Shown here piece by piece: positions 18,269 to 49,332 of a stretch of 50,269 nt of DNA (position 1 is its first letter; each line of letters begins with the position of its first letter). The position numbers and the translations under genes were made by a program. This DNA is from a virus (lineage: Duplodnaviria; Heunggongvirae; Uroviricota; Caudoviricetes). Location: IMG/VR virus record IMGVR_UViG_3300020158_000005, positions 64,001-114,269 of that record; one strand, written 5' to 3'. Below the pieces are notes generated by a model. That model made no database searches. It was not told where the DNA came from and saw only the letters and a program-made list of their open reading frames with translations.

Positions 18269-21200
18269 TTATAATCTATCCTGAATTGAACAAGAATTTC
18301 CACTGCAGGCAATGGAAGCATAATCGCTAACATCTTTATATTCAGGCTTAGTAAGAATCTTTGAAAGGTCTACTTCTTTAAATTGTTTATCAATGGTTTC
18401 CCATTTATGCAGAATATGCACATCTTTTAAACAATATACCATATTATCTATGTTATTCTTAAAATAGTTCTTAGCAAATTTCTTAGCTCTATCAATCCAA
18501 TATTTCTTCAATAACACTTGTTCTCTTGTTCCTGCAATAGGTTCCGTTTTGTCCTTTACAGATTTACAAGCTTGCCAAAGATTACCATTAAAATAATGTA
18601 ACCCATCTACAATAAGTCCCGAAGCAAATAAAGCTCCTGTACCATATTTAGCAATAATTTCTTCTAATGTAACTAGTTCTGTTAGGGGGGCTTGATTCCA
18701 CTCTCTACTACCAAAGTCACTTAAGAAAGAAATAGCTGTAAAAGCATCTTTATTATCCCAAATATAGTCAGCACATTTTTCCTTATCTCCTTCTCCTAAC
18801 ACTACTGTACAGGATACATTATGATTAATACCTCTATATCCACATAATTCAGGAACAGTTCCTGGCATTACCCAGTTTTCTTGTACTAATTTAATGTATT
18901 CTAGATGTTTTACACCCAGTACATCTTTCTTTAATAAGGCATCTTTATTATTCGCTACAGGAACATATACAACATAATCAGTTTTACTGTCACTATGTAC
19001 ACTTTCCTCTATCATATAAGGTCTATTTTCGGCTAACCACTTAGCTACGGTGTTTTCTTTGTTAATTTGCATCACTCTAAAATAGTTTCTAGCTTCTTCA
19101 GCAGAAATACCACCTACAGTCATAGCAATAACACTAGAATTACCTCCAGGTTTAACACAAGTAGTACGAGCAGCTTGATTGATTCCTATCATATCAGCTA
19201 CTATTTTGTTCGTATTCACTACTAATGCAGCACCTTCTCTTAGCCATTCTGGGTTAAATAGCTTAGGATTATTCATCCAACCTATTACAGAAATTCCTAA
19301 TAAAGCTTCTTTCTCAAAGATTTTTTCACTCACCTCTCCTAAATAAGGGAAAGACGTATAACCTGCTTGACAAGTTCCTAATATAGCAGAATGAACACAA
19401 GCTTTCAAAAATAACTCTTTTGTAGTACATTTTTCAGCTACAATTTCATTTAAATTACATTGCTTAGTTAAAACATTATTAAATACTCCTTGGTGTAATT
19501 CTGTTTCTTCAAAACAATATGAGTTATGTAAACCTGGGAGTAACTCTATAGTATCTATAATTTGTACTTTTCCTTTTTTAGTTGGTTCTTCTTTTGATAA
19601 CTCTCCTTTTGAACACCATAGCTCGGAACAGTCTGAAATTTGTAAATACCATATATCTTTATTTCTAATAGCATAGTTAGTTTTTACTCCTTTTTCTTGC
19701 ATTAAATTAACAGAAGAATCTATCCCTATTTTTGTTAGCAACAACTGGCAATCTCTAATTTTACTTTCTTCCCCATAAATTCTCAGCTTGCCATTATAAG
19801 TAATTGTACCGTCAGTATCTACCCACCCAGCAATAAAATTAATAATACTCTGTTTATTCCAAGTAAACACTTTAGATGGTAAACCTTCTTCATATTTTAA
19901 AGAAACCGAAAAATCTCTATCTAATTTATCAAAAGTTACATTATAATAATCTCCTGATTTTGTGGTGTTTAACACTTCACTTTTTTTACCACATATAAAA
20001 GGGAAGTCTAAATGAAAATTAGATTTATAAACAGAGGCAAAAGGTAGTCTTGATTTACCATTTTGATAATTTCTACACGTACCGTCACCTAATAGAAAAC
20101 CATAATCGTAAGCATATTCTTCTAAGACACCATCAGTATATATAATATTAGATTTAGGTACTGAAACTTTATATTTTTCAGTATTATTCAATAATTCAGA
20201 TAGTTTTAACTCTCTGTAGTTTTCTTCAAATCTATTTTTAACCAAAAACTTATGATTTTCTGTACAATCAAGATAGGACCCATCTGAAAAACCCACTCTA
20301 TATAGATTTCTATTAACACCTGTTAATACAGGCTTAACTTTTGACCATTTAACCCCATTCCAAATCTCTATTTCTTCCTTATTTTCCGCAACTTCTCCAA
20401 TAACTCTAATTCCATCTCTAGTTATAAGTTTTGTGTTATATTCAACACATCCCTGTACTCCAAATAAATCTTCATTAACCTTTGTAAACTCTTGAATATC
20501 ATCATAATGTATTTTACTTAAATCCCCATCATAAAGAATAGGTAGTTTACTAATTTCAAAACAAGGATTGAACATATCAAACCAAGAGTTAGCAAATACG
20601 AATCCAATATCATTTTGTCCACCATTTAGATTTACAAGATAATCAAACTGTTCTTTTGTTACTAAATTACGTATTAATATAACGCTATTATTGGTTCTTT
20701 CTCTTTGTTTGTTTTCAGAATACCAATTCCCTGTTTTAGCTAATATCATTTCCTCGTCATTAGGGTCTACGATGAAATCCAAAGCAGCTCTTCTCACGCC
20801 ACCACTAAGTACAGCATTAGACAAATGGCAAATAACATCTCCAACTACAATAGGTCTTAATTCATTTCCTTCTGTAATCATCCAATTATCTAACACTTGC
20901 TCTATTTTTTCAAGAGCATTTTTAAGGGGTTCATAACCAGGGGCTTTAAATCCCCCAGAGATAAATGTACCTTTTTCACGTATACCGCTACCATCGAACT
21001 TAATCTTATACCCTGTATATTCAGGAAAAGGGGCTTTATCTACAAAATAAGAAGACATTAATACACCTGCTGCATCTGCCCATCCTTCAATACTATCTTC
21101 AATTACAAATGTTTTTGTACCTAATAATCTAGGCTGAATCTTTGAAATATTCTTAACAAAAGGAATTAATAAACCTACACCTACTCCACAACCATTTAAA

Positions 21201-21523
21201 GCTAGATAGAACACTTCTTGAAAAACTCTGTTTCTTGAAGCATGCGTAGAAGTACAATTGTACATCCTAAGATTACTCCTTTCTATTTGTTTATATCTAT
21301 ACTGTAAATTCCTTTGTGAAGCTAAAATAAGCATATCACCTAAAGAGTCTTCTACTTCGTTTAGTAATACATTTAATTCTTCATTTTGATACTTTATTCT
21401 ATGCCCATTAATAATGTCCTTAGAAGCATCTTTCCATGTTTCATACCTACCTTCATCCATCCATTTAAAATAATCTGAATGTAATTTTAGGTCAGATAGA
21501 AACTTTTTTCCTTTGTTTGTCAT
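18269..21523 (-). CDS. nrdJ: Class II (B12-dependent, RTPR/monomeric-type) ribonucleotide reductase with intein
   Basis: YNCT, DSIEGWAD, SGGVRRAA, NPCFEI, (QG)CNLNEI, TTCVKPGG and C-terminal ACSGNSC; no nrdB in window. Confidence 0.88.
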   Translation of the reverse strand: MTNKGKKFLSDLKLHSDYFKWMDEGRYETWKDASKDIINGHRIKYQNEELNVLLNEVEDSLGDMLILASQRNLQYRYKQIERSNLRMYNCTSTHASRNRVFQEVFYLALNGCGVGVGLLIPFVKNISKIQPRLLGTKTFVIEDSIEGWADAAGVLMSSYFVDKAPFPEYTGYKIKFDGSGIREKGTFISGGFKAPGYEPLKNALEKIEQVLDNWMITEGNELRPIVVGDVICHLSNAVLSGGVRRAALDFIVDPNDEEMILAKTGNWYSENKQRERTNNSVILIRNLVTKEQFDYLVNLNGGQNDIGFVFANSWFDMFNPCFEISKLPILYDGDLSKIHYDDIQEFTKVNEDLFGVQGCVEYNTKLITRDGIRVIGEVAENKEEIEIWNGVKWSKVKPVLTGVNRNLYRVGFSDGSYLDCTENHKFLVKNRFEENYRELKLSELLNNTEKYKVSVPKSNIIYTDGVLEEYAYDYGFLLGDGTCRNYQNGKSRLPFASVYKSNFHLDFPFICGKKSEVLNTTKSGDYYNVTFDKLDRDFSVSLKYEEGLPSKVFTWNKQSIINFIAGWVDTDGTITYNGKLRIYGEESKIRDCQLLLTKIGIDSSVNLMQEKGVKTNYAIRNKDIWYLQISDCSELWCSKGELSKEEPTKKGKVQIIDTIELLPGLHNSYCFEETELHQGVFNNVLTKQCNLNEIVAEKCTTKELFLKACVHSAILGTCQAGYTSFPYLGEVSEKIFEKEALLGISVIGWMNNPKLFNPEWLREGAALVVNTNKIVADMIGINQAARTTCVKPGGNSSVIAMTVGGISAEEARNYFRVMQINKENTVAKWLAENRPYMIEESVHSDSKTDYVVYVPVANNKDALLKKDVLGVKHLEYIKLVQENWVMPGTVPELCGYRGINHNVSCTVVLGEGDKEKCADYIWDNKDAFTAISFLSDFGSREWNQAPLTELVTLEEIIAKYGTGALFASGLIVDGLHYFNGNLWQACKSVKDKTEPIAGTREQVLLKKYWIDRAKKFAKNYFKNNIDNMVYCLKDVHILHKWETIDKQFKEVDLSKILTKPEYKDVSDYASIACSGNSCSIQDRL
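19460..20449 (-). mobile_element. Intein with LAGLIDADG domain and C-terminal Gln, 330 aa
   Basis: Starts CVEYNTKLIT, block B CTENHKF, GFLLGDG and AGWVDTDG motifs, ends NNVLTKQ followed by Cys. Confidence 0.92.
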
Positions 21524-21608: not shown

Positions 21609-21788
21609 TTAATCTTTCTTGTTTAAGAATCTATAATAAGTTAATTCTGCTTCTATCTCCATAGCAAAATTTTTTAACAAATTCTCCACATCTCGTATCA
21701 ATATCATACCACAATCTTCACATTGTCCCTCTTTAAAAGGGAGTTCTTTCTCCTTTATTTTAGTAAGATATTTAGTTAACGTTGTCAT
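21609..21788 (-). CDS. Small CxxC protein (59 aa, absent from ORF track)
   Basis: MTTLTKYLTKIKEKELPFKEGQCEDCGMILIRDVENLLKNFAMEIEAELTYYRFLNKKD; start overlaps upstream stop. Confidence 0.6.
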   Translation of the reverse strand: MTTLTKYLTKIKEKELPFKEGQCEDCGMILIRDVENLLKNFAMEIEAELTYYRFLNKKD

Positions 21789-22597
21789 ATTAATTCTTTT
21801 AAACTATGAATCCTCTTATAGCCAACATCATAACGTTCATTATGCGGAGTGTCATATAGGAAACAACATATTCCTGCAGCATTAAGAGCTTTAAAATTAT
21901 CAAAACTATCATCTACAAAAATATCAATTCCAGCTTGTTTAGCTACATCCACTTTAGATTGTCCCACACCTACACAAAATACAGGTTTTGTAGGAAAACC
22001 ATTATCATCCAACCATTTAGTAGTAGTTACTACTGTACATGGTCGACTAGTAATGTAACAAGCAGGTTCAAATGGAATATCTTCTGCACTAATTAAAGGT
22101 TTTAATCCTGCATAAAAACTTTCCAAAATTCCTTTTTCCTTCATATCAACAAATCTCTGCACAATCTCCCTATCGAAGAACCATGATGTAGGGGCATCTT
22201 TAATATCGTAAAGCTCTCTCCAACCTCCTAACCAGTCACATAACACTTCATCAATATCTAATCCAATTTTAGGTCTTTGTAAATATCCATGAGCTCTGTC
22301 GTCTCCTTGAGGATAGATTTTGTAATAGGCTGTAAGAAAATGTGCATTACAAGCTAAATGAGCAGCATGCAATTCTCCTGTTTCTCCATCATAATCTTCC
22401 CCTTTTTTAATAGCAGCTAAATGTCTTTCTAATGATGAAATAACATTGCTCCATTTCATACCTAATTCCCAGTTTCTTTCAGCATACTTTTGAGCCCCTT
22501 TAGTAAGTATTTTTACCATTTCTTCATGTGCATAAGGATGCACTAAATCATAACGTAATTTTCCTTCGTTAAAACGAAGTCCTCCTCCTTGTTCCAT
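21785..22597 (-). CDS. Fusion of dATP/dGTP diphosphohydrolase (DUF5664-like) and HAD 5'-nucleotidase-like domain
   Basis: N-term GLRFNEGKLRYDL...GAQKY..RNW..GM....SSL.RH...D.ETG..H.AH..CN..FL; C-term IGLDIDEVL...YITSRP...IFVDDS. Confidence 0.8.
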   Translation of the reverse strand: MEQGGGLRFNEGKLRYDLVHPYAHEEMVKILTKGAQKYAERNWELGMKWSNVISSLERHLAAIKKGEDYDGETGELHAAHLACNAHFLTAYYKIYPQGDDRAHGYLQRPKIGLDIDEVLCDWLGGWRELYDIKDAPTSWFFDREIVQRFVDMKEKGILESFYAGLKPLISAEDIPFEPACYITSRPCTVVTTTKWLDDNGFPTKPVFCVGVGQSKVDVAKQAGIDIFVDDSFDNFKALNAAGICCFLYDTPHNERYDVGYKRIHSLKELI

Positions 22598-22941: not shown

Positions 22942-23660
22942 TTATAAATTTATAATGTTACCATTGTTAATAACCCCTTTATCGAATCTTCCATCTTCTA
23001 CTAACGAACCATTACTAAAAATAGTGTCTAATCCAGATAATGTCATAGTTCCTTGATTAATACAGTCTTTAAAGCGATGAATATGCCCAAAGCACACTAA
23101 CTTATGTGTGCTATTCATACAATGTTTTAAAAGACTTCTATCCCCACATTGCTCAAAATCATTATTTCTATTCTGAGTTAGGTCAAGTATACCTAATGGA
23201 GGACCATGACTGATAAGAATATCAGTAGTAGGTTCAACCATTTCCCATATTTCGTTCATCTTAGCTCTATTCTTATTAAATGCCCATCCTTCACCAAAAG
23301 AGGGTGTAATTGGAGTACCAAAGATACGAAATCCTTCTATTTCAGTGTAATCATTTTCTAGATAAGTTATTCCAACACTATGAAAATCAGAAGGAGTTAC
23401 TCTTCTTCTTTCGATAGCTAGGTCATGATTCCCAGCCGTAGCTAGCTTATGCTTTATTGGTAGAGAACCCATCCATTCTATAAAATCCCTACATTCTTTT
23501 TCACTTTGAATTAAATCCCTAGGATTTGACATATCTCCTGAGAATATAACCATATCCACTTCAGGAACTTTAAGTTGTTTGTGGAAAGTATGCGTCACGT
23601 ATCCGAGATATGCCATATGGTTAATGACTTATCTCGGATATTATTTTTTAAATTTATCAT
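22942..23660 (-). CDS. Calcineurin-like metallophosphoesterase; the N-terminal 21 codons (23660-23598) are out of frame with the body (23592-22942)
   Basis: Body has SGD, AGNHD, ISHGPP and FGHIH motifs; motif I (ISDT-H) is split by a 5-nt insert containing TGA. Confidence 0.8.
23600..23640 (-). promoter_or_regulatory. 11-bp perfect hairpin ending at the candidate take-off codon
   Basis: TATCCGAGATA-19 nt-TATCTCGGATA. Confidence 0.7.
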
Positions 23661-24519
23661 AAATTATATTTTTAAGTTCTAAATTAAAACATTCAGTATG
23701 TCCCTCAAATTTACTAATAGGCTTATATTTTAATGTTTTAAATCCTTTTAAATAATACTGTTCTATATTAGATATTTCTGTAGAATTACTTTCATATTCT
23801 AACAATATATTATATTTATAATTTTTTACACCATGATATCTTTTTTTAATATTTACACGGGTAATTCCTATTTTTATAAATCTCTCAGTCTCATTAAAAA
23901 ATTCTAACATATAAAATATACATTGTTTGTTTTTTGATTTCTCTATCCAATGTGTTCTACTAAAACTTGAATTATCTTTTTTACATATAGGACATCCTCT
24001 ACCTAATAAATGACTTTCAATAAGAGAGTTAAATATACCATGTTTTTCACAAAATACATCTATTTTCTTTTTACTATTTGTATAATCAAAAACAGGGTAT
24101 GAATATTTATTATTATGTTTTTTATTAGCTTTAAAACAAAATAAGTCATAAGGTTTAGTACATGATACTATAGATACAGGATGACCTTGTAACAAATCAT
24201 AACATTGAGGTTCATATTGAAATCCATTATTATCTTGAACTAATAGTTTACTTTTCATACCCTTATAATTAATAAGAGTAAGGTTAGGAAAAATAGTATG
24301 TATCTTTCCTTGAATATATTTATATTTATCAACAATACTATAACAATTTGTTTTGTGCTTAAAAACTCTTCCAGGCATACGTTTAAACTCATTACCCTCT
24401 TTATCTTTAAATATAAGAGGAGTAGATAAGTTTTTAAAATAAACTATTTCATAGTCAGGATATAACTCTTCAAATTGTTTAAAGAATAATAAAGTCCTAT
24501 CTTTAAAGGAAATACTCAT
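23641..24519 (-). mobile_element. Free-standing homing endonuclease-like gene (repeats plus CxxC zinc motif plus C-terminal GIY-YIG/T5orf172-like domain)
   Basis: CEKHGIF...HLLGRGCPIC; FYMLEF...FIKIGITR..IKKRY...GHTECF. Confidence 0.75.
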
Positions 24520-49243: not shown

Positions 49244-49259
49244 AATAATAAATTTTTAG

Positions 49260-49332
49260 ATTCCCCAGTAGGACTCGAACCTACAACCTCTTGAATACAA
49301 TTCAAGGCTCTACCAATTAGAGCTATGGGGAA
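49260..49332 (-). tRNA. Atypical tRNA, best read as Thr(UGU); no encoded CCA
   Basis: Acceptor TTCCCCA/TGGGGAA, D-arm GCTC..TGGTA..GAGC, anticodon stem CTTGA/TCAAG with loop ATTGTAT, T-arm GTAGG-TTCGAGT-CCTAC. Confidence 0.7.

Follow-up and report, generated by a model that had tools for sequence, protein, structure and literature searches.

Natural translational bypassing is known or has been suggested in just a handful of systems: T4 gene 60 with its homologues, the byp elements of yeast mitochondria and, probably, the gene that encodes the terminase in Streptomyces phage Hau3. The gene 60 bypass is carried by a mobA homing-endonuclease element (Huang 1988; Manning & Atkins, bioRxiv 10.1101/2022.08.31.505936), and in this element the insert shields the DNA from the element's own nuclease (bioRxiv 10.1101/2022.08.31.505936). 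The byp elements of Magnusiomyces capitatus mitochondria are likewise mobile bypassed inserts, according to the accounts of them in PMC5009743 and in the Manning & Atkins preprint. In the Hau3 terminase gene, 10-nucleotide (nt) inserts are bypassed at a rare UUA codon, and the junction peptide was identified by mass spectrometry in E. coli (PMC10732093). Synthetic stop-hops and hops of +5 or +6 were obtained in E. coli at a low level from artificial constructs (Weiss et al. 1987, as cited in PMC5009743). The same review knew of no natural in-frame stop-hop and noted a long-standing presumption that gene 60 has shorter counterparts (PMC5009743). Here we describe a locus in a 50,269-nt stretch of a Caudoviricetes genome (positions 64,001 to 114,269 of IMG/VR record IMGVR_UViG_3300020158_000005), which we call the window, where the gene for an MPPED2-like phage metallophosphoesterase is interrupted by 5 nt within motif I (D-x-H) of its active site. 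Sequence comparison suggests that ribosomes probably cross this interruption by a programmed 5-nt translational bypass, or stop-hop. We hold with less assurance, yet still favour, the wider proposal that the locus has a conserved stop-hop of 5 nt that occurs in nature and is driven by a hairpin, that no shorter programmed bypass has been described, and that the hop is part of a mobile module together with homing endonucleases.

Among published short bypasses, the nearest is that of the Hau3 terminase, with 10 nt. Like the locus in the window, it is short, lies in a phage gene and has a 5' stem-loop proposed as its stimulator, but it depends on a hungry sense codon in place of a stop, has a gap of 10 nt and is proposed to involve a Shine-Dalgarno (SD) interaction. 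It has been read as a sensor with a regulatory role, lacks an endonuclease cassette and is known from few occurrences (PMC10732093). The synthetic stop-hops, as far as the citing review describes them, share with our locus a peptidyl-tRNA that leaves the codon before a stop and re-pairs a few bases on; they differ in that the arrangement described here is natural, conserved and needed for the enzyme. The byps, again as portrayed in the sources that cite them, have take-off and landing codons that match fully or nearly so and use no SD, as here, whereas they are 27-55 nt long with an internal stem-loop, are mitochondrial and have no endonuclease link. A full-text literature search combining bypassing with phosphoesterase found nothing. 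The elements of the locus in the window are as follows (ORF, open reading frame; aa, amino acids).

23598..23660, minus strand: ORF1, with start codon ATG (23660-23658), an N-terminal extension of 14 codons, I-W-H-I-S-D and, for take-off, the Thr codon ACG (23600-23598)
23595..23597, minus strand: stop codon TGA, directly 3' of the take-off codon
23593..23597, minus strand: 5-nt coding gap TGACG, in which the landing triplet ACG (23595-23593) shares its A with the stop codon
22942..23592, minus strand: ORF2, from the resume codon CAT (His of D-x-H, 23592-23590) to the stop at 22944-22942; PF00149, MPPED2 family
23600..23640, minus strand: predicted two-tier RNA hairpin whose 3' half is the W-H-I-S-D coding sequence
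23641..24519, minus strand: endonuclease-like ORF of 292 aa, T5orf172/DUF723 type, whose last 20 nt overlap the new phosphoesterase start

On the minus strand the site reads ATG(23660) ATA AAT ... ATA TGG CAT ATC TCG GAT ACG(23600-23598) TGA(23597-23595) CG CAT(23592-23590) ACT TTC CAC. The frame opened by ATG 23660 comprises 21 codons, MINLKNNIRDKSLTIWHISDT, and is ended by the TGA, with ACG repeated 5 nt on, as an initial annotation made from the letters alone had it. The rest of the enzyme lies in another frame, in an ORF of 224 aa (22942..23616, minus strand) with the N-terminus MAYLGYVTHTFHK (MAYLGYVTH). The match of this ORF to Pfam Metallophos begins only at profile position 22 (39.9 bits), and motif I is therefore missing without the hop; the initial annotation was right that a product started at 23616 lacks the Asp ligand. 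If the ACG is read, TGACG skipped and translation resumed at CAT, the predicted 237-aa product (P0121) covers profile positions 2-190 of Pfam Metallophos (PF00149; 46.4 bits). Its ISDTHTFH aligns across the junction with ISDTHSRT of MPPED2, a solved metallophosphoesterase, and it is collinear across the junction with canonical homologues. The order D-x-H, GD, GNH[DE], H and GHxH is complete only in the hopped protein, in which D-T-H falls at the junction. The junction sequences that the hop predicts are ...IWHISDTHTFHK and SLTIWHISDTHTFHK; the uninterrupted, canonical motif-I DNA is TGGCAYATYTCNGAYACNCAYAC. With the start of the Pfam match moving from 22 to 2 and ISDTHS of MPPED2 aligned, the proposal that a hop rebuilds motif I stands. 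Only a 5-nt hop yields D-T-H, the spacing found in every canonical homologue and in MPPED2.

We then considered whether the insert could be an assembly or sequencing error in the window contig, an alternative that the initial annotation had raised. Contigs from four runs in four studies, one of which may be the source of the window itself, cover the site without a single indel, which argues that TGACG is not an artefact. One of the four is a 5-kb contig from a strain diverged by ~6%, with 50 substitutions and no gaps, which retains the insert; by arithmetic from the listed coordinates, 31 of the 40 listed differences lie at third codon positions of the downstream frame. The same 5-nt insert is also found in ~20 diverged relatives from other samples and assemblers. 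We regard an error as negligibly probable.

A protein search returned thousands of homologues of ~225 aa, most of them starting MKIWHISDTHTFH. A minority, 52-64% identical to the window protein, start MAYLGHLTH, MAHLGHLTH, LAYLGYVTH or MAFWGYVTH, and starts of this type are the out-of-frame reading of W-H-[IF]-[SG]-D. Pattern scans of IMG/VR and of metagenome contigs, in which the take-off codon and the two bases before His were left free, brought the collection to 21 distinct sites with the frameshift, two of them almost the same, spread over phage and metagenome contigs from many samples; the enzyme bodies of these relatives are only ~50-75% identical. All 21 sites have W-H-[I/F/V]-[S/G]-D, a Thr codon, a stop codon, two further bases and CAY. 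The take-off codon is ACG in 13 sites and ACT in 8, and the stop directly after it, which the initial annotation had singled out, is present throughout as TAA (11) or TGA (10). The landing triplet is ACT in 14 sites, ACG and ACA in 2 each, ATA in 2 and ATT in 1, and so always A-Y-N (ACN 18/21, AUN 3/21); such a triplet can pair with the Thr anticodon (3'-UGN-5'), with a middle-base G-U in the three AUN cases. The notion of matched take-off and landing codons holds in part: the window has ACG and ACG and every site has a Thr-compatible landing triplet, but the two codons are identical in 8 of 21 sites and differ at the third base in 10, and in 3 the landing triplet is AUN. ACA is the commonest Thr codon at the take-off position of canonical genes (27/58) and occurs at no take-off site (0/21; p = 3e-5, phylogeny ignored). 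Taken together, the insert, stop, Thr take-off, compatible landing triplet and hairpin of ~20 relatives strongly support the programmed 5-nt hop that the initial annotation proposed.

The arrangement was found only on phage and metagenome contigs. Scans of these genes that allowed TAG or TGG and 0-15 nt after the stop gave no gap length other than 5 nt. A pattern scan of representative genomes of 185,579 prokaryotic species gave no phosphoesterase site, only chance matches such as one in a glyA-like frame. DNA searches of GenBank phages found no relative of the site; at the protein level, the 30 best of 89 records, all from Flavobacterium phages, match only from residue 8, like uninterrupted genes.

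The enzyme could in principle be rescued by other routes: by a +2 shift, giving D-T-(T/I)-H, by a -1 shift, giving D-T-(V/L)-(T/I)-H, or by reinitiation, with the 21-aa peptide and the enzyme body assembling non-covalently. We consider this group of explanations unlikely. A -1 or +2 shift allows no P-site re-pairing and would break the strict D-x-H spacing of canonical homologues and MPPED2 by giving D-x-x-x-H or D-x-x-H; the wrong spacing of a -1 product had already been pointed out in the initial annotation. For reinitiation, a GTG or TTG overlaps the stop in the window and in locus L001 (GTGA, TTGA), as in coupled genes, and split enzymes are known to adjoin homing endonucleases, for example Topo2L and NrdA (bioRxiv 10.1101/2022.08.31.505936). 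However, this overlapping restart codon is present in some sites only and is replaced by TTA or GTA in L004, L005 and others. The internal start position further upstream is ATG, TTG or CTG, depending on which codon precedes Trp in canonical genes; it shows the same distribution as in those genes and is therefore not selected as a start. Neither the shifts nor reinitiation would explain the constant A-Y-N triplet 5 nt on.

To judge whether the downstream frame is in use, we compared ORF2 among frameshifted genes. GD, GNHD, HGPP and GHIH are invariant in the ORF2 of 10 frameshifted homologues, and ORF2 is intact, with all metal-ligand motifs, in 15 distinct full-length copies at ~50-75% identity despite A+T-rich DNA. 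The ratio of nonsynonymous to synonymous substitution (dN/dS) between frameshifted genes is 0.08-0.29, which indicates purifying selection on ORF2. The window, L005 and L001 form a clade of frameshifted genes only, with long branches and a Shimodaira-Hasegawa-like approximate likelihood ratio (SH-aLRT) support of 98. These data bear on the possibility that an arriving endonuclease cassette simply inactivated the gene, that no productive bypass takes place and that the conserved features hitchhike on a recently spreading selfish element. The mobility of the module, its scattered occurrence on the enzyme tree and the visible decay of two copies (see below) would fit inactivation. The intact and catalytically complete ORF2 copies, the low dN/dS, the third-position bias between the two insert-bearing strains and the long-branched clade all speak against it, as does the retention, in every site, of a stop and a Thr-compatible landing triplet, features that a dead gene does not need. 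We therefore judge inactivation quite improbable, and the simple inactivating insertion that the initial annotation listed as an alternative is disfavoured by the intact ORF2, the selection on it and the conserved hairpin.

This hairpin is formed with sequence that is itself new to the gene. All frameshifted genes have an N-terminal extension of 10-15 codons, mostly of the form MNNLK..., which most canonical genes lack, the majority of them starting MKIWH. Of the hairpin's two arms, the 5' one comes from the extension and the 3' one consists of the W-H-I-S-D codons. The core of the extension, TCCGAGA or a variant of it, is the complement of the I-S-D codons, and its nucleotides are conserved while being translated in two frames, as I-S-P-R or as I-R-D, which suggests that the RNA rather than the peptide is selected. 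A nascent-peptide signal is accordingly unsupported, the extension being always present but its core being read in both frames. In the window, an outer stem of 11 bp (23640-23630/23610-23600) encloses an inner stem of 5 bp (23628-23624/23616-23612), and the structure has a predicted energy of -20.8 kcal/mol (z = -5.15), with none of 200 shuffles folding as well. The initial annotation had placed the outer stem correctly, but the hairpin is larger than it claimed, and the alternative AUG (23616-23614) lies within the inner stem. The hairpin does not correspond to the in-gap take-off stem-loop of gene 60, as it is a 5' element that would be unwound by the ribosome by the time of take-off.

We folded the 68 nt ending at the take-off codon separately for each of 19 frameshifted sites and 58 canonical starts. 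The fold energy was -20.9 +/- 2.2 kcal/mol for the frameshifted sites and -4.7 +/- 2.6 kcal/mol for the canonical starts, without overlap (Mann-Whitney p = 4e-11), and the frameshifted sites had a mean z of -5.8 relative to shuffled upstream sequence. Relative to the take-off codon, the last base of the stem is always -1 or 0. Where the coding 3' arm changes, the 5' arm changes with it: GAT or GAC is accompanied by A or G, a change of TCG to TCA by a change of C to T and, on a larger scale, a change of ATCTCG to TTTGGG by one of CGAGAT to CCAAAA. A covariance model built from 7 sites recovered every frameshifted locus (21/21), with a single match in the window, and no canonical control locus (0/5). 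We made the pair counts on the alignment to this model, because MAFFT had set the 5' arms in two different registers. Pairing holds in 94.9% of cells, and both sides vary in 7 of the 10 pairs; none of 500 shuffles equalled this, and slid controls reached 11-53% pairing. G-U pairs on the sense strand identify the structure as one of RNA, not DNA. That the hairpin follows coding changes in its 3' arm (I-S to F-G, TCG to TCA) by compensatory changes is a further point against inactivation. Thus, ~20 diverged relatives keep both the insert and the hairpin while their downstream ORF is under selection, a comparison that the initial annotation had named as a check on the hop.

One uninterrupted gene, at L061 1466-1540 (plus strand), has an MNNLK-type extension and a remnant of the 5' arm, with no insert, no hairpin and no match to the covariance model. 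It may be a recombinant, or a revertant that has lost the insert.

A conserved hairpin that ends right beside the insert could also suggest that editing, or cleavage and ligation guided by the hairpin, takes the 5 nt out of the RNA to leave a continuous mRNA. Such removal would need neither a stop codon at the first three bases nor a Thr-compatible triplet at the last three, and we know of no 5-nt RNA excision in bacteria or phages. We regard this explanation as very improbable.

On the stop-hop reading, translation would initiate at ATG 23660 and proceed through 21 codons to the Thr codon ACG. With UGA in the A site and decoded slowly, peptidyl-tRNA-Thr would detach, the mRNA would advance by 5 nt and the tRNA would re-pair with the next ACG (A-Y-N in the relatives). 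Decoding would then restart at CAT to give ...IWHISD-T-HTFH... and the complete enzyme. The stop in the A site, the penultimate Asp and the weakly paired take-off codons would all fit detachment of the peptidyl-tRNA. At take-off the inner stem should already be outside the ribosome, with the 3' arm of the outer stem (bases -10 to -1) still in the mRNA channel. The upstream hairpin may then favour forward movement, its G+C-rich outer stem zipping as the I-S-D codons leave the mRNA exit; because the outer stem could zip only as these codons exit, each base of forward slide would gain one base pair. Hairpins that abut a shift site and refold are known to stimulate a forward (+1) shift at CUU-UGA on 70S ribosomes (PMC6321510, PMC3639245). 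They share with the hairpin described here high stability, a 3' end at the shift site and forward movement at the codon before UGA on 70S ribosomes, whereas they are engineered or viral attenuators that produce 1-nt shifts and also attenuate -1 shifting, and here the step would be 5 nt in a natural gene (PMC3639245, PMC6321510).

The window also encodes a tRNA-Thr(UGU) (49259-49332, minus strand), the sole tRNA gene of a ~114-kb genome that is ~98% complete. As a required factor this tRNA was rejected: relatives that are ~93-95% complete have no tRNA gene or only tRNA-Glu, so it is not a general requirement. Most relatives with the hop lack this tRNA, and any link between the two is either specific to the window phage or a coincidence.

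We next asked how the insert came to be distributed among these genes. The 292-aa ORF that overlaps the new start matches Pfam T5orf172 (E=6e-4), PHROG 681 'endonuclease' (E=5e-29) and PHROG 559 'HNH endonuclease' (E=6.5e-16), and is a putative free-standing homing endonuclease. Homologues stand at the same position in L154 and L159 (45-50% identical) and in L113 (28-30%), and the gene upstream in L212 shares its C-terminal motif. The nuclease genes found next to the phosphoesterase are the following.

T5orf172/DUF723 endonuclease family, abutting or overlapping the new start: window, L154, L159, L113 and L212
Endo VII family, abutting or overlapping the new start: L001, L123 and L139
Nuclease-like gene upstream of canonical loci: 2 of 54

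An endonuclease gene thus lies directly upstream in 8 of the 18 frameshifted loci with upstream sequence, compared with 2 of 54 canonical loci (Fisher p = 4e-4 on 7/17 versus 2/54, before L212 was added; the loci are not independent). Loci without an endonuclease retain the last codons of the T5orf172 gene (...YEQFKK*), overlapping the new ATG, and L086 retains a degenerate C-terminal fragment of the endonuclease gene; these remnants suggest that the endonuclease was lost after insertion. In L092 (4555-5049) and L120 (3049-3564), the gene directly upstream of the hop-bearing start belongs to an unannotated family of ~165-172 aa, the two members being 48% identical, with no Pfam match in either locus and no PHROG match for L092. 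This family might be a third endonuclease family.

On the enzyme tree, frameshifted genes are scattered among canonical ones, with at least 4 changes forced by well-supported branches and 10 by parsimony; L035, which is frameshifted, is sister to the canonical L072. The identity of the extensions is uncorrelated with that of the bodies (rho = -0.06 over 210 pairs); in some pairs, 94-100% identity of the extensions goes with 60-68% identity of the bodies. The extension, hairpin arm and insert behave as one mobile module, often together with a homing-endonuclease gene. By analogy with T4 mobA and gene 60, the insert probably protects the conserved motif-I DNA from the endonuclease, and the hop would preserve the enzyme.

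The initial annotation had likened the site to gene 60 and the byps, and the site would work in the manner of gene 60 bypassing; the annotation had missed the mobile module tied to an endonuclease gene. As in gene 60, the coding gap interrupts an active-site motif that binds metal in a conserved phage enzyme, the take-off codon is followed by a stop, with Asp as the penultimate residue before it (bioRxiv 10.1101/2022.08.31.505936), and the landing triplet is readable by the same tRNA, with wobble variants among relatives. Both have a new N-terminal extension, a sporadic distribution and a linked free-standing endonuclease gene that is sometimes lost or swapped for another family. Unlike gene 60, with its gap of 50 nt, the locus described here has a gap of 5 nt and has no in-gap stem-loop, no mini-SD and no scanning phase. 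Its 5' hairpin is strong and covaries, whereas the 5' stem-loop of gene 60 is not conserved between clades; its extension is conserved as RNA in two frames, with the nascent-peptide signal unsupported; and the phosphoesterase host gene and the T5orf172 and Endo VII nucleases are unrelated to those of T4. As there is no in-gap stem-loop or mini-SD and the 5-nt gap is just a stop and two bases, this is not a homologue of the gene 60 cassette.

Several points count against the interpretation that we favour. We infer translation across the gap, and the efficiency of the hop with it, from sequence comparison. The take-off codon is identical to the landing codon in only 8 of the 21 sites. The 3' arm of the hairpin is inside the ribosome at take-off in our model, so that its stimulating role belongs to that model too, and the pair counts come from an alignment fitted to the covariance model itself. 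As the module recombines, part of the divergence of ORF2 may predate each acquisition. Finally, two copies are decaying. L091 1034-1090 (minus strand; = L167) has a full site, ACG TAA CT CAT, with one extra base four codons after the landing triplet, which returns the remaining enzyme to the upstream frame, with a TAA in that frame ahead of it; this could reflect decay of the copy, an error in sequencing or a second recoding event. L160 281-1034 (plus strand) has lost ~400 nt inside the enzyme gene, while L152 is intact; both have an ATA landing triplet and an identical extension, and AUN-landing sites may be weaker or in the course of being lost. The decay in L091 and L160 means that the gene can be lost and that some sites may no longer work.

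With one stop codon, two bases and one hairpin, this would be a minimal bypassing system, and its ~20 natural variants of take-off, landing, stop, stem and loop length make it ready for reporter assays, mass spectrometry and cryo-electron microscopy. If the stop-hop is correct, a zipping 5' hairpin alone, with no SD or structure in the gap, could move a ribosome by a defined number of bases, and very short hops may be a general means by which selfish endonuclease cassettes break up their target within active-site codons while sparing the host enzyme. With this association, the link of homing endonucleases to recoding reaches beyond topoisomerase genes. Annotation is affected as well, as gene callers record such genes as N-terminally truncated proteins starting MAYLG....

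The phosphoesterase gene of the window lies in a nucleotide-metabolism cluster. Two genes downstream of it, an ORF of 270 aa (21785-22597, minus strand) carries an N-terminal dATP/dGTP diphosphohydrolase domain (PF18909, E=1.4e-29) fused to an NT5C-like 5'-nucleotidase domain. Just downstream of the cluster is an ORF of 1084 aa (18269-21523, minus strand).

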